This document shows positions 12,484-47,236 of a stretch of DNA of 64,000 nucleotides, one piece after another. The notes under the pieces were generated by a model, which saw only the letters and a program-made list of their open reading frames with translations, did no database searches and was not told the origin of the DNA. Both the position numbers and the translations under genes were made by a program. The DNA comes from Patescibacteria group bacterium (GTDB lineage: Bacteria > Patescibacteriota > Minisyncoccia > Phycocordibacterales > UBA9973): the NCBI GenBank assembly GCA_028865035.1, contig JAGWLB010000002.1, forward strand, positions 49,531-113,530, in the 5' to 3' direction. The first letter of the stretch is position 1, and every line of letters starts with the position of its first letter.

Positions 12484-12554
12484 TTGGGGATCGTCTAATG
12501 GTAGGACAGCGGCCTTTGAAGCCGTTAATTGGGGTTCGAATCCCTGTCCCCAAG
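12484..12554 (+). tRNA. tRNA-Gln(TTG)
   Basis: Cloverleaf, anticodon arm gcggc-ctTTGaa-gccgt, GTTCGAAT; CCA not encoded. Confidence 0.96.
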
Positions 12555-12578
12555 CAAAGTGAGCCAAGCGAGATTTGC

Positions 12579-12704
12579 TTGGGGAAGAAAGTGCATTGCA
12601 CTTTCGCCAGGGATGAGAAGACCTTGAGTGTATCGCACGTAGCAAAGCAAGTACGATACGAAAGGCGTACTGAATCTGTAGGATTCGAAACTCCCTGTCC
12701 CAAA
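12579..12704 (+). ncRNA. Structured element carrying antisense and sense copies of the tRNA-Gln 3' end
   Basis: ttgggga..caggga pairs with tccctgtcccaaa; three internal hairpins; same layout as 1071-1188. Confidence 0.6.
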
Positions 12705-12731
12705 GCCAATAATTTGTTTATAGTATTAAAT

Positions 12732-13121
12732 ATGAAAAAAGAAATAAAATTCACAGCTCTATTTGTAAAAGACATAAAAGATTTATTAAAAAGATTCCCT
12801 CCTAAGCATAAGAAAATTTTTGGACATCATTCAACGATTGAATTTCAACCAACTAGTCTAGATGGCATAGAAATAGGAAAAGAATGCAGTATAAAAATAA
12901 TAGGACGAGCTTGGGATGAATTTGGAGATGACCTTCTTGTTGAAAATTTAAAATCTAAAAATAAATACCCCCACATAACCGTGTCCCGAGCAGATAATGC
13001 TCCACCACTGTACTCAAAAATACTATTTGAAAAAACTGATATAGAATACTTTGATAATGAAGAAGTTAGGGTTATTGAAGGATATTCAGATGGGAATAAG
13101 TATATTACACAGAACCTATAG
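12732..13121 (+). CDS. 2H-phosphoesterase-like protein
   Basis: Two HxT motifs (HSTI, HITV); the ORF-track start at 12498 overlaps the tRNA and was trimmed. Confidence 0.6.
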   Translation: MKKEIKFTALFVKDIKDLLKRFPPKHKKIFGHHSTIEFQPTSLDGIEIGKECSIKIIGRAWDEFGDDLLVENLKSKNKYPHITVSRADNAPPLYSKILFEKTDIEYFDNEEVRVIEGYSDGNKYITQNL

Positions 13122-13237
13122 CTGTTCCAACTTCATCCCTGCCTGCGCAGGCAGGCCAGACTGTAAGCCAATAATTTGCTATAATATTAACTTATGGAAA
13201 AGAAAATTATTGTTATAACTTCTGGTATAATATTAAA

Positions 13238-13876
13238 ATGGAAGAACAACTCACTAATTATATTAAGGAAAAGTACAATCCATTAGCCATTGTATTACAT
13301 GGCTCACGTGCAAATGGGTACGCAAAGGAACATTCTGATTGGGACTTTTTAATTTTTACATATAAAGATGTTAACCCCGCAAGAGATATTAAATTTGGTG
13401 CAAATTTTGAAATAAAGCAAGTAATACTTCCTTTGTCTGATAATAAAATTAAGGAAGGTCTTGGTTTTTTATTTAGGACCGAAAATATAAAAATATTATA
13501 TGATAAAGATAGTATTGTTCCTGCTTTGCTTACTAAAAATGAAATAGTAATTGAAAAAGGAGACACGTTCAATGAGGTAGATAAACGTGCTCGATGTGCA
13601 TTTTTAAAATCAAGTTTAGATAGTATTGAAGATTATAAAAATAATGAGTTAATTGTTTTTTCCAAAAAGGCAATATTTTATAATAAGGTTGTGCCTACGT
13701 GGTTTAGATTTCTTCATAACGAATTCAAGCCCTCAGATTATTTAGCTCTACCTCGAATTAAAAGTGATGATCCAGAATTCTATAAATTACTTGAGGAGTT
13801 TATTGATGCAGATGCTGAGCAATCAATTCTTATTGGAAACAAAATGATCAATCATATTTTCTCAGATTTAGATTAA
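13238..13876 (+). CDS. Nucleotidyltransferase domain protein (Pol-beta/MNT-like)
   Basis: HGSRA.G....SDWD motif. Confidence 0.8.
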   Translation: MEEQLTNYIKEKYNPLAIVLHGSRANGYAKEHSDWDFLIFTYKDVNPARDIKFGANFEIKQVILPLSDNKIKEGLGFLFRTENIKILYDKDSIVPALLTKNEIVIEKGDTFNEVDKRARCAFLKSSLDSIEDYKNNELIVFSKKAIFYNKVVPTWFRFLHNEFKPSDYLALPRIKSDDPEFYKLLEEFIDADAEQSILIGNKMINHIFSDLD

Positions 13877-13966
13877 GAATTGTTTCAACTTCGCCTCAGA
13901 CGGTAAGCAAATAAAAACCACCGGAAATAAATTTGGTGGTTTAATAGAAGTTTCATTCAAATAATT

Positions 13967-14452
13967 TTAATCTTGGAATTTTTTGATTGCCTCGATTCTT
14001 ACAGAATCATCAAAAAATTCTTTTGGATTAATTATCCCGAGGTTGTCATCCACTAATTTAATATCAAGAGGTAAGACACCTGCAGTCGGAATAATTCCTC
14101 CGTTACCATCATCTGCACCAAACTTTGAAGAAATAAAATAAATAATTATTGTTTCTTCACCGCCGCATTGTTCAATCATGTAATTTACAATATTTATATC
14201 CTTGTTTGGCCATTTTTTTACCGGACCAATCATAATTATTTCAAAATTTTCAGGCTGATAAAAAAAATTACCAGGATCAGCATTTATAGGAAAATGAAAT
14301 TGTTTACCGGTCAAATCAAAATTTTTTGATTCACCATACCATTGTAACCAAACTTCATTACCATGTTTTTTTTCACGAAATAAGGTTGGTTTTTTTACAA
14401 TTTCTTTGCATGTTTGATGAACGGGCTCGCTCACTGGCTTAACTGTTTCCAT
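13967..14452 (-). CDS. Hypothetical protein
   Basis: 161-aa ORF with upstream TTGACA and downstream terminator, bounded by repeats. Confidence 0.6.
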   Translation of the reverse strand: METVKPVSEPVHQTCKEIVKKPTLFREKKHGNEVWLQWYGESKNFDLTGKQFHFPINADPGNFFYQPENFEIIMIGPVKKWPNKDINIVNYMIEQCGGEETIIIYFISSKFGADDGNGGIIPTAGVLPLDIKLVDDNLGIINPKEFFDDSVRIEAIKKFQD

Positions 14453-14582
14453 AATTTAACATTTTAATGGTTTATTTTATTGTTGGTTTTTCTTTACATT
14501 AACATTTACTACTTATTTGTCAACAATATCGTTTCAACTTCACCCCAGACGGTAAGCCAATAATTTGCTATAATACTAACTT

Positions 14583-15017
14583 ATGGAAAAGAAAATTATT
14601 GTTAGAGCTAGAGCTATTATTTTAAATAATAATAAATTACTAGTAGTAAAGCATTCACATGATTCGAGCTTCGCTGCTTTACCAGGGGGTCACCTTGAAT
14701 GGGGAGAAGATATCAAGGAATGTTTATCTAGAGAAATTGTAGAAGAACTTGGAATAAACCCTGAGATTGGAAGACTACTATATGTTAATAATTTTACAGA
14801 AAAAGATACTGAGCAATCAGTAGAATTTTTCTTTGAAGTTACAAATGGTTATGCGTATAAAGATTTTGAAAATCATACAAGAACACATGCATATGAACTT
14901 GCTGATATACTTTGGATAGAGCCTAACGATCTTGTGAACATTCTACCAAAAGAATTTGAAGAAGATTTTAAATTAGGGAAAATTATTTCTGATCAAGTAA
15001 GATATATACATTCTTAA
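14583..15017 (+). CDS. NUDIX hydrolase
   Basis: Nudix box LPGGHLEWGE...CLSREIVEELG. Confidence 0.93.
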   Translation: MEKKIIVRARAIILNNNKLLVVKHSHDSSFAALPGGHLEWGEDIKECLSREIVEELGINPEIGRLLYVNNFTEKDTEQSVEFFFEVTNGYAYKDFENHTRTHAYELADILWIEPNDLVNILPKEFEEDFKLGKIISDQVRYIHS

Positions 15018-43690: not shown

Positions 43691-43808
43691 GACTATATTA
43701 GCATATTATACTCTTCCGAACATCCTCCCAGGTTTGGAGCCATACTTGACAAATTACTTTATATATTATATTTTAGAGTTAAATTGTTAAACTAAAAATT
43801 GAATAATT

Positions 43809-44312
43809 ATGAAAAAAGTTTTTCTTGTTCTTTTAATAACATACTCAATAGTATGTACAGGTTATATTATTTATCTAAAGTCACCTCTCAATGACCATGG
43901 GCATAGACTCTACGGAGTTAAGAATCCAAAAACTATGTTAGTTTTAGATTCAATATTCCGTGATGTAGCTAACCTTCATAGGGATTTGGTCTTTAAGGTT
44001 GGACCGAGTACTCAGGCAATTTACGACAACGGCAGAGTTGGCTTAAATTATATAAGCGACTCAACAGTGGATCTTCCATTATCTGGGCCCAGCTTCGTTG
44101 TCAGTAATCCAGAAGAATCAGCACAAAAAGCCGCTAGGATTCTAACCCGAAATGGATTTAATGCCAGAATTATTGTTAATTTTGACTCAACTTTATCCAA
44201 TAAATTAGTTTTACTTCAAAGTAACTCTATTAATTGGACACTTGTTTTTAGAAGAGATATTCTAAATATGGGCAAGAAACCAAAAGACATAGGTTTCGGA
44301 TGGGCAAAATGA
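43809..44312 (+). CDS. Hypothetical membrane-anchored protein
   Basis: N-terminal TM; own promoter and terminator. Confidence 0.65.
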   Translation: MKKVFLVLLITYSIVCTGYIIYLKSPLNDHGHRLYGVKNPKTMLVLDSIFRDVANLHRDLVFKVGPSTQAIYDNGRVGLNYISDSTVDLPLSGPSFVVSNPEESAQKAARILTRNGFNARIIVNFDSTLSNKLVLLQSNSINWTLVFRRDILNMGKKPKDIGFGWAK

Positions 44313-44477
44313 TTTTCAAAAAAAGATGATTTTTTTATTGAAGGAATCGTGTAACAACGATTCCTTTTTTATTTATCCATATCAACCAAACTCTTCCGAA
44401 CATCCTCCCAGGTTCGGAGCCTAAATTTTAATTTGATTTGTAAGAGGAAAATTGTATAATTAAAGAAAACTTTAGTA

Positions 44478-45125
44478 ATGGAATTAAATGTATCAAAACA
44501 GTATTATGAATCACTTGATTATACTGCCATTTCTTTAATAGAAACCGTTACCCGTTTTAATACTAATTGTGGAAGTATTAACAATATTATATCGACAGAA
44601 GATAACTTTCCTTTGAAAAGGAATCCGGGAGCTAATATTGAAGATTGGAATGGTTTTTTTGTTTCTCGTAATTTTAGATTTTTATTGAAGCTAAATTGTT
44701 TTGGAAAGATAATGGAAATTCCTTACCACAAAAATATTAGCACCCTAATTAGTTGTGCTAGATATGATGAAAAGTTTAATAATGTGGTAATAAATAATGA
44801 TTATTGTCTTAGAAAAGCCAATTTTCTGAAGTCAGTAACAAACCATCAGCTTTTTGGATATCTGTTTTCTAAATCAAATGAGCTATCAATAATGACACTG
44901 GACGATATCAGTTTCCTGTGGATGATTCTAAGTACACTCCTATTTCATGAAAATTTGCTAAATCATGGAGAATGGTGCCACAACGTATTTATGGGTTGGA
45001 AAAGAAATAGTCCTTTAATAGTTCAGAGAATTGGAAAATTATGGCATCTTTCAAATGATGAATTTTATCCTGAACATTCGTATCATGTAAAAGATGAAAC
45101 ATTATTTTTCCCGGTTATCAAGTGA
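44478..45125 (+). CDS. Hypothetical protein
   Basis: 215-aa ORF between repeat sites. Confidence 0.55.
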   Translation: MELNVSKQYYESLDYTAISLIETVTRFNTNCGSINNIISTEDNFPLKRNPGANIEDWNGFFVSRNFRFLLKLNCFGKIMEIPYHKNISTLISCARYDEKFNNVVINNDYCLRKANFLKSVTNHQLFGYLFSKSNELSIMTLDDISFLWMILSTLLFHENLLNHGEWCHNVFMGWKRNSPLIVQRIGKLWHLSNDEFYPEHSYHVKDETLFFPVIK

Positions 45126-45277
45126 TTATAAAGACACCATTTTATTTAACGGTGTCTTTTTAATAATATCTAGAACATTTTCCAATCTTTTCTTAATTTT
45201 ATTCCAATTAGAATTCTGAACTTGTCCACTAAAGCGAGCCAGATAGATTCTCGTTAAAGTTTTGATATAATAAACTT

Positions 45278-45832
45278 ATGAGAAAAATAATTGTACAAGA
45301 AATGATTAGTGTTGATGGATTTTTTGCTGGAGAAAACGGTGAAATAGATTGGCATAATGTGGATGCCGAATTTAATAAATATGCTATTGAATTTCTTAAT
45401 ACCATAGATTCTTTGTTGTTTGGCCGCATTACTTATGAACTCATGGCAAGTTATTGGCCTACAGAAGCTGCTTTAAATGATGACCAAATCGTTGCTTCTA
45501 AAATGAATAATCTTTCGAAAATTGTTTTTTCTAAAACCAGGAATATATTAGAATGGAATAACTCAAAAGTGTTTTCTGAAATTAATGCAGAAGAAATAAA
45601 AAAATTAAAACAAACTGAAGGTAAGGATATTGCCATATTTGGCAGTGGTACTATTGTATCTGAACTTACCAAACTAAGATTAATTGATGAGTATCGGCTT
45701 ATTGTAAATCCTATAGTTCTTGGTAAGGGTAAGTCATTATTTTCATATATAGAAAAAAGATACAAGTTACAGCTCGTAAAAGTAGAAAAGTTTAAATCAG
45801 GAAATGTTTCCCTTCACTACAGTCTTTTATAG
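45278..45832 (+). CDS. Dihydrofolate reductase family (RibD C-terminal) protein
   Basis: SVDGF, LFGRITYE, KIVFS, GKDI.IFGSG, LIDEY.L.V.PIVLG.GK.LF. Confidence 0.92.
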   Translation: MRKIIVQEMISVDGFFAGENGEIDWHNVDAEFNKYAIEFLNTIDSLLFGRITYELMASYWPTEAALNDDQIVASKMNNLSKIVFSKTRNILEWNNSKVFSEINAEEIKKLKQTEGKDIAIFGSGTIVSELTKLRLIDEYRLIVNPIVLGKGKSLFSYIEKRYKLQLVKVEKFKSGNVSLHYSLL

Positions 45833-45929
45833 AATCAATAAGGGTTAAGAACATTTAATAATACTCTTCCGAACATAATCCAAGGTTTGGATCTTGTTAA
45901 TTTTGTAGTAGAGATGTTATATTTCTATC

Positions 45930-46403
45930 ATGGAAGAAAGAGATACAGAAGGAGCTTTTAGATGGATTGTAAATATAATTAAAAAACATAATATACCTTT
46001 TCAGATAAAAGGTGGTTTTGCTTCACGTCTATATGGAGTAAAAAGGGAACTGGCTGATATTGATATATCTATCCCAGAGAATAGATTTGATGAATTAATT
46101 CCTGAAATAAAAGAGTTTATTGTATATGGACCAGAACAATATTTAGATGATGAATGGGATATAAAACTCATAACTCTAACTTACAAAAATCAGGATATAG
46201 ATATAGCAGGAGCATATAAAAAGAAAAACTTTGATAAGATGAACCAGAAATGGGTAAATATACCGACTAACTTTGATACTAGTGTGTATATGGATGTATA
46301 TGGTTTAAATGTACCAGTGATTTCTAAGACAGACCTAATAAATTACAAGAAACTCATTCAAAGAGATGTAGATATATTTGATATTAATGCTTTAAGTAAG
46401 TAA
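45930..46403 (+). CDS. Nucleotidyltransferase-superfamily protein
   Basis: GGFA...YG..R..ADIDI motif; LINYK....R..D..D. Confidence 0.7.
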   Translation: MEERDTEGAFRWIVNIIKKHNIPFQIKGGFASRLYGVKRELADIDISIPENRFDELIPEIKEFIVYGPEQYLDDEWDIKLITLTYKNQDIDIAGAYKKKNFDKMNQKWVNIPTNFDTSVYMDVYGLNVPVISKTDLINYKKLIQRDVDIFDINALSK

Positions 46404-46516
46404 CTTAATATTCTTCAGAACATAGTCTCAGAATTGTAGTTTAGTGAATTTGTAAACGTTATTAATTTTAAATAAGTACTTACATATATGTAAACTTTTA
46501 TGATATAGTCATTGTT

Positions 46517-47119
46517 ATGATAAAAGTATTAATTTTTGATGCTGACGGTGTTCTCATAAATGGTGAGATGTTCAGTAAAATACTTGCTAAAGAATACGGA
46601 ATCTCAACCGAAATAACAGAACCATTTTTTGACGGACCTTTTAGTGAGTGCTTAGTTGGTAATATTGATTTGAAAGAAGCTATTTCTCCATATTTAGAAG
46701 GTTGGGGATGGAAAACAGGTGTGGATAGTTTCCTAGATTATTGGTTTTCTGCAGAGCACTCTATTGATCAAGATTTGATTGCATATATTCAAGAATGTAG
46801 AAAGAGGGGAATCAAGTGCTATGTTGCAACCAATCAAGAAAAGCATCGAGCTGAGTATATGCTTGATAAATTAGGATTTGTAAATAACTTTGATAAGCTT
46901 TATGCTTCTGCGCATTTAGGGCATAAAAAACCAAGTTTGGATTTCTATGAAAAATTAGTAAACGATCTCGACGGCATAAATAAAGAAGAAATCCTATTTT
47001 GGGATGATTCACCTAAAAATATAACGGCCGCACGACAATTTGGAATTAATGCAGAATTATATACTACTTTTGAAGATTTTAATAAGAGAATGAAGATTTA
47101 TCCTGATTTTGATAAGTAA
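46517..47119 (+). CDS. HAD-IA family hydrolase
   Basis: FDADGVL, ATN, KKP, FWDD...N. Confidence 0.92.
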   Translation: MIKVLIFDADGVLINGEMFSKILAKEYGISTEITEPFFDGPFSECLVGNIDLKEAISPYLEGWGWKTGVDSFLDYWFSAEHSIDQDLIAYIQECRKRGIKCYVATNQEKHRAEYMLDKLGFVNNFDKLYASAHLGHKKPSLDFYEKLVNDLDGINKEEILFWDDSPKNITAARQFGINAELYTTFEDFNKRMKIYPDFDK

Positions 47120-47236
47120 TACTAATTCGAATATCCTATCTATTCTTCTAAGCGAGCAAATAAAAAACCCTGTTATAGGGTTTTACGGCAATTTAAAATC
47201 TTAAGTAATATGTATATATTTATAATTATGACTATA

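Follow-up and report, generated by a model that had tools for sequence, protein, structure and literature searches.

The window, a stretch of 64,000 nucleotides from a member of the Patescibacteria, contains a gene-less, hairpin-rich element of 133 bases that lies 3' of a tRNA-Gln gene (positions 12574-12706). This element is probably an inserted copy of a small, non-autonomous mobile element without genes, wherein a conserved hairpin core has an inverted copy of the tRNA-Gln end on one side and a direct copy on the other. The layout of the element, the way its arms track the tRNA, the covariation within its core, the filled and empty orthologous sites and the arm-less copies of the same core are all direct observations. 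The same core is found by itself at sites unrelated to tRNA-Gln or to each other, and therefore is likely a tiny mobile element. No description of this element family was found in the literature searched or in Rfam, which also has no family matching the window element.

Layout of the tRNA-Gln element

The tRNA-Gln(TTG) gene is intact and occupies positions 12484-12555 of the forward strand (T54 is 12535, C56 is 12537 and G57 is 12538 in the standard tRNA numbering scheme, which is applied throughout). All parts of the element lie on this same strand. The trailer of the gene (12556-12573) forms the stem extension and the loop of a snap-back hairpin, whose other side is an anti-acceptor arm (12574-12585) that pairs with 12547-12558, which is the genomic end of the gene and not CCA. 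The snap-back of 12 base pairs claimed in the first-pass annotation is perfect, and it extends into the T-stem. Within the antisense arm there is a side hairpin (12586-12606) that faces the T-stem/acceptor junction and has a base motif resembling the first hairpin of the free copies described below. An anti-T arm (12608-12619) then complements tRNA positions 54-65 except for a tandem G.A mismatch facing 57-58.

The core follows, and consists of a long hairpin with tandem GA internal loops (P2, 12621-12665) and a GTAC linker with a terminal hairpin that together form its right end (12667-12686; the hairpin P3 is located at 12672-12686 and its GTA triloop at 12678-12680). The element closes with a direct copy of tRNA positions 57-74 (12687-12706) that carries one substitution and a two-base insertion after position 59 (12690-12691). 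This copy is likely the displaced original end of the gene.

Each module that the earlier reading had assigned to this element is found at the position given. The same holds for the claim that it shares its architecture with an element located 3' of the tRNA-Tyr gene (1071-1217 on the reverse strand, with the tRNA at 1218-1301); the module order is identical. However, the two differ in core subtype. Two short motifs had been proposed as common to both elements. GTAG corresponds to the GTA triloop plus its closing base. GAAA is no scaffold motif, and instead represents tRNA positions 57-59 plus one inserted base.

Folding calculations indicate more structure than expected from composition. None of 200 shuffles matched the fold of the tRNA plus the element as RNA (z -3.8), the tRNA 3' half plus the element as DNA (z -5.9), or the element alone as RNA (z -3.3), which adopts a closed multibranch shape. 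A contig from sequencing run X2, which may be the source sample, spans 12496-12904 with zero differences; the contigs of this run showed no informative joint.

Structure of the core

P3 is a five-pair stem in 70 copies that were found by their left end only, and its loop is GTA in 67 of them and GTG in three. There are 29 distinct P3 stems, which pair at 0.90 compared with 0.49 after shuffling (0/10,000 shuffles reach this value), and the base of P2 gives 0.69 versus 0.40 (9/10,000). Thus the stems of P3 covary around the triloop, which was one of the checks called for at the outset.

Some observations bear on whether the structure might act as DNA or as RNA. The stability of GNA loops in DNA depends on the closing pair, according to the available part of PMC3201870, and the closing pair of P3 is usually T-A (52/70). 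Since mini-hairpins of the GNA type are less stable as RNA than as DNA, at least as outlined in the accessible text of PMC13037366, these loops may be taken by analogy as a hint of DNA. As to the replication-strand bias that action as single-stranded DNA would entail, the core lies on the G-rich strand in 40 of 72 free-core loci, a figure that is confounded by gene direction, and the mini-hairpin motif falls on the top strand 20 times and on the bottom strand 17 times.

The opposite conclusion would follow if the element were a functional RNA released from the tRNA precursor by cleavage, serving as a mimic of the tRNA end or as an attenuator like RtT of Escherichia coli, with its arms under selection for RNA pairing. 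The tRNA-sense strand gives the better fold for 101 of 115 P2 hairpins, largely through the tandem GA loops, and the multibranch fold formed by the element alone is closed. Furthermore, some tRNA-linked repeats of E. coli are transcribed and processed, as described in the accessible portion of PMC8144298. Nevertheless, we consider this reading quite unlikely. The orientation of free cores is opposite to that of the adjacent genes in 22 of 72 loci, and such cores also occur inside tRNA genes of the reverse strand. The element is often missing from orthologous tRNAs, and many trailers are terminator-like hairpins located upstream of the arms, although no such hairpin scores at the tRNA-Gln locus.

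The arms follow the adjacent tRNA

A total of 56 elements could be used to score the arms, after 10 were left out of the initial 73 because of distance, one because its T-loop was unrecognised and six because they lacked an anchor. The arm matches its own tRNA at positions 59-65 with a mean of 5.84/7, compared with 3.50 for other tRNAs, and 0/10,000 permutations reach this difference, although the permutation figures are overstated because the genomes are related and kin are not independent. After re-anchoring, 45/56 arms score at least 6/7. The arms therefore do follow tRNA identity, and tRNA-Gln genes with differing T-stems are matched accordingly. An antisense T-arm was found downstream of 86 of the 128 tRNAs in the fetched loci, a set enriched for the element, and upstream of four. 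Together with the covariation of the core, the arm tracking backs the idea of a conserved scaffold that is refitted to each tRNA.

The downstream direct copy is also characteristic. The three bases after P3 are tRNA positions 57-59 in 52/56 elements, compared with 20% in the control. Of the 56 elements, 23 are free of any insertion after position 59, whereas 11 contain two additional bases there and another 11 a 14-base hairpin; the remaining 11 have other or unparsed arrangements. Identity of this copy to the tRNA falls from 50/55 at position 60 to 35-40/55 at positions 69-72. Where copy and tRNA differ (n=30), the upstream tRNA is the better match to the acceptor arm in 20 cases and the copy in two, with eight ties.

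An arm of this kind could in principle be a primer-binding site for mature tRNA within a retro-element layout, wherein the 18-20-base complement of the tRNA end would lie, as it does here, just inside a terminal direct repeat. Such an origin is scarcely credible. The arm contains no anti-CCA, and the bases that face positions 74-76 match the genomic trailer in 19/27 cases and are TGG in 2/27. Reverse transcriptase is also absent from this genome and from the two genomes richest in the element.

Distribution of the family

The genome of the window is 735 kb in 21 contigs, and 12 of its 40 tRNAs bear such a trailer when read by eye. These are Cys, Tyr, both Gln, Leu(taa), Lys(ttt), Arg(gcg), Ser(tga), His, one Met, Ser(cga) and Ala, the last being a less clear case. 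Several core subtypes share the layout in this genome.

A pattern for the right end of the core is present at no fewer than 122 loci, with about 710 stretches estimated, and among the 80 matches listed, every one with a lineage name belongs to the Patescibacteria. It is found in 2/7 genomes of the same Patescibacteria order and in 0/393 outside it. A looser core pattern is found in 78/200 genomes of the order, and a reversed control pattern gives no matches. Among 126 pattern matches, 73 have a tRNA on the same strand within 500 bases upstream, and these cover 30 tRNA labels. Such elements also sit 3' of tmRNA and of the end of rplL, the latter being a related type that holds the core of the window element. 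No match to three core patterns was found in viral contigs, and plasmid and phage collections held no match to the core.

Presence and absence at orthologous tRNAs had also been proposed as a check, and both filled and empty sites are seen. The orthologous tRNA-Gln loci beside the AI-2E gene contain differing cores or no element.

Some representatives depart from the common arrangement. The tailored elements at loci L122, L130 and L111 have no recognisable tRNA in the 300 bases upstream, and are preceded by similar structured sequence that no Rfam family matches. A group I intron was considered upstream of some of the copies that lack a tRNA, and was dropped for want of Rfam support (20 loci). 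Likenesses to hammerhead, k-turn, H/ACA and IS91 were dropped as well, since their motifs, as generally known, are absent. There is a second scaffold type that ends in GTGACC (positions 43430-43540 of contig C19 in this genome; also loci L028, L055, L092 and L101), which shares the antisense arm as well as the junction ahead of position 57, and which often hosts the first core type. Separately, ARAGORN reports a tRNA-Ser with the anticodon ACT in this genome (contig C16, 10939-11026), which is unusual in bacteria.

Arm-less copies and mobility

There are 68 distinct arm-less copies, which are some 70-110 bases long and in which an ordinary hairpin replaces the first helix that is otherwise built from the tRNA. 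Their left flank is GGG, AGG or GAG in 60/68, where the search itself required two purines at this flank. An empty site can be inferred for 27 of the 68 (three bases were replaced in 16, four are ambiguous and seven are other), and an independent metagenome set found by left ends gave a three-base replacement in 7/10; for 41/68 and 34/44 free copies, respectively, there is no inferable empty site. Given that the last base of the element often equals that of the target, the real target loss may be two to three bases.

The targets of these free copies include tRNA-Phe fragments, palindromic repeats, other elements and redundant tRNA copies. At loci L198 and L265, redundant tRNA copies contain a free core between G53 and G57, which is the junction used by the tailored copies. 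In two further cases (L084:1387-1460 and L318:959-1032) the core interrupts a tRNA-Ile(GAT) on the reverse strand, and an intact copy of tRNA-Ile is located in the P2 loop, which is a second route to restoration of the target. The earlier suggestion of a non-autonomous tRNA-targeting element is thereby upheld and can be made sharper: the core moves without arms into many targets.

Relationships among cores are consistent with movement. Across genomes, cores are as similar behind different tRNAs as behind the same tRNA (0.55 in both cases), and near-identical cores make up 13% of 45 pairs within a genome versus 2% of 2874 pairs, in a comparison where one of 78 rows was mis-parsed. Within a single genome, near-identical cores follow different tRNAs or tmRNA, and a tRNA-Leu core of genome G037 is 78-92% identical to seven free copies of that genome. 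The nearest relatives of the free cores in genomes G565 and G604 are not the tailored cores of the same genome. Core exchange among old elements could also be a source of the similarity within genomes. None of 111 matches to the left end is a gene-bearing long version (the right end was placed by script in 49 and by eye in 62). GC-rich palindromes interrupt P3 at locus L007 and tRNA 5' remnants at loci L184 and L188.

The arm-less copies also bear on the possibility that the antisense arm is a programmable guide, wherein the whole tailored unit would be mobile and integration would be directed by base pairing of the arm with the target tRNA gene on both sides of the cut. The arm covers positions 54-73, which include the junction, and fits the intact tRNA better than it fits the downstream copy of its own element. 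Pairing within the element would be weakened by the 2- or 14-base bulge. Moreover, extended DNA pairing can retarget single-strand transposition by engineered IS608, as reported in the available portion of PMC5934647. Weighing against this, arm-less cores enter many sites, including the very same T-loop junction, which indicates that the arm is unnecessary for insertion. The guide reading also leaves the origin of a new arm unexplained, and the Y1 transposase is absent from this genome. On balance, a guide function is unlikely.

Search for an associated enzyme

This genome has no Y1, reverse transcriptase, IS110, TnpB or Rep_trans domains. It does encode one tyrosine recombinase and two serine recombinases, and yields six GIY-YIG hits, four of which are on the short contigs C6, C7 and C15 that may be phage-like or mis-binned. 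No recombinase domain is present among 150 ORFs that flank elements, and none adjoins the window copy.

When 23 element-rich genomes were compared with 24 that lack the pattern, Y1 was found in 16/23 versus 17/24, reverse transcriptase in 13/23 versus 9/24, large serine recombinase in 14/23 versus 21/24 (and in neither of the two richest genomes), and GIY-YIG in all 47 (23/23 and 24/24). None of these four candidates tracked the element, in a comparison weakened by the fact that pattern-free genomes may carry other core types. Thus the association with a recombinase or reverse transcriptase gene that the first-pass annotation had proposed to look for was found neither among flanking ORFs nor in the element-rich genomes as a group.

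These results, together with the free copies, bear on a more conventional explanation, which is that the element is an ordinary scar left by an integrase island in the T-loop of the tRNA, with a palindrome later perfected by replication errors. A restored gene and a displaced 3' fragment are the standard signature of an island (PMC4383910, in its available text), and the recombinases listed above are at hand in the genome. It is difficult to reconcile such a scar with a covarying core that is found behind about 30 tRNA types and as free insertions, or with flanking ORFs devoid of recombinase domains. The free form largely refutes this explanation, and we regard it as very improbable.

Three small GIY-YIG genes are located just upstream of element-bearing tRNAs. 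Small GIY-YIG genes are also found with an intact tRNA on one side and a broken copy of its 5' end on the other (L097:2361-2603, L188:1598-1830 and L184:2650-2890), and apparently belong to a separate mini-element that targets tRNA 5' ends. The flanks of 22 small GIY-YIG genes from 30 loci contained no such core when inspected by eye. A large serine recombinase gene (contig C12, 201569-203347, in this genome; locus L160) points at tRNA-Ser(gga), behind which there is a different structured stretch.

The downstream cassette array

The element was also described as heading a gene-cassette array, and it does so here. Three punctuation repeats that end in the last bases of the tRNA are located within 13123-14563 on the forward strand (at about 13123-13175, 13879-13914 and 14528-14563), and the accessory genes that they separate include one for a nucleotidyltransferase (13238-13876), with one for a NUDIX protein following (14583-15017). 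A GC-rich palindrome similar to those at loci L007, L184 and L188 is inserted within the first of these repeats (13140-13158). However, the array is independent of the element, because a tRNA-Asn cassette array in the same window (43700-47150) has punctuation ending in the last bases of tRNA-Asn and no tailored element, and because a gene separates the tRNA from the element at loci L086 and L097. The array and the element are separate systems that share a site and not a mechanism.

A possible route of insertion

Under the favoured reading, in which the window element is an inserted copy of a mobile element, the simplest account is that the core, as part of a three-hairpin unit, would enter the T-loop after G53 and replace positions 54-56. 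The upstream tRNA end would then be restored, and the downstream copy would be the original end, pushed away and subsequently decaying. In tailored copies, the tRNA end pairs with its inverted copy to make up the first helix, which would leave the gene restored. Fold-back DNA synthesis in the course of insertion or repair is the likely source of the inverted copy and would yield a miniature inverted triplication. The inverted copy is likely kept since it closes the first helix of the element, the role that an ordinary hairpin plays in the free copies. A putative enzyme acting in trans would move the folded single strand. No excised circle was seen.

Two features are left unaccounted for by fold-back synthesis, namely the side hairpin at 65/66 and the recurring 2- or 14-base insertion after position 59 (22/56). 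The latter points to some role for the downstream copy as well.

Relation to known systems

The tRNA-linked repeats (TLRs, RtT) of E. coli have been known since 1978, are located behind tRNAs, end by repeating 18-19 bases from the 3' end of the gene upstream, and are without a known function according to the accessible text of PMC8144298, wherein the words 'inverted' and 'mobile' do not appear. The window element likewise lies behind a tRNA and ends in a copy of its 3' end, and the E. coli repeats likewise occur in tandem. In one E. coli chromosome there are nine RtT matches, which combine a stretch antisense to the T-arm with the tRNA-end copy and with a terminal hairpin whose loop is G-N-A. 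The antisense arm of the E. coli Tyr repeat matches at 13/15 positions and ends in GGATGAGAA, an ending common to the tyr, pro and ser repeats and to the anti-T arm of the window element. A terminal hairpin motif, CCGTAGGGCGAG, is common to the E. coli TLRs and the Tyr element of the window. The own tRNA scores at least as high as others in 7/8 of the E. coli repeats scored, with four ties among T-stems that are alike, and tailoring is clear only for Tyr. The copy starts at position 58 in E. coli, in contrast to position 57 in the family described here. The RtT model RF00391 gave no matches at E<=1 in five carrier genomes and none in the window. Judged from sequence, the window element may thus be called TLR-like in layout, and homology or membership is unsupported by RF00391.

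Other systems share part of the arrangement. Islander-type islands in tRNA and tmRNA genes also leave a restored target upstream, a displaced 3' fragment downstream and a T-loop junction, but the element has neither integrase nor cargo, and differs in its inverted target copy, in the entry of its core into unrelated sites and in its small target loss. Members of IS200/IS605 such as IS608 (PMC5934647, as far as its available portion describes them) resemble it in their hairpin ends, in the presumed use of one folded strand, in a free form without target duplication and in possible targeting by base pairing. The element differs from these in having only a loose purine-purine-G flank and no fixed target tetra- or pentanucleotide, in the loss of about three target bases and in showing no TnpA association in the genomes compared. 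Inverted triplications attributed to ODIRA (PMC4689423, in the part available) have the same direct-inverted-direct layout of one segment, whereas the element repeats about 20 bases and not a gene-sized segment, at a fixed junction and around a conserved foreign core, so that the analogy concerns origin only.

The arm-less form, the target-loss rule, the shared junction and the tested link in layout to the E. coli TLRs are new here. A more ambitious proposal is that these elements and the TLRs are one broad class of protein-less mobile units, in which an antisense arm copied from the target would then serve as a guide, carried by the unit itself, for naturally reprogrammable integration at sites of about 20 bases, with the gene end restored. 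We put this forward as a doubtful, though conceivable, unification.

A repeat with the layout of the TLRs is here accompanied by a mobile form that lacks arms, by a junction that is fixed and by the signature of a small target loss, which makes the long-standing puzzle of the TLRs open to tests in laboratory E. coli. If the arm is a guide, the enzyme involved would be a new programmable integration tool. These elements also show how DNA without genes can enter essential genes in reduced genomes and leave those genes intact.
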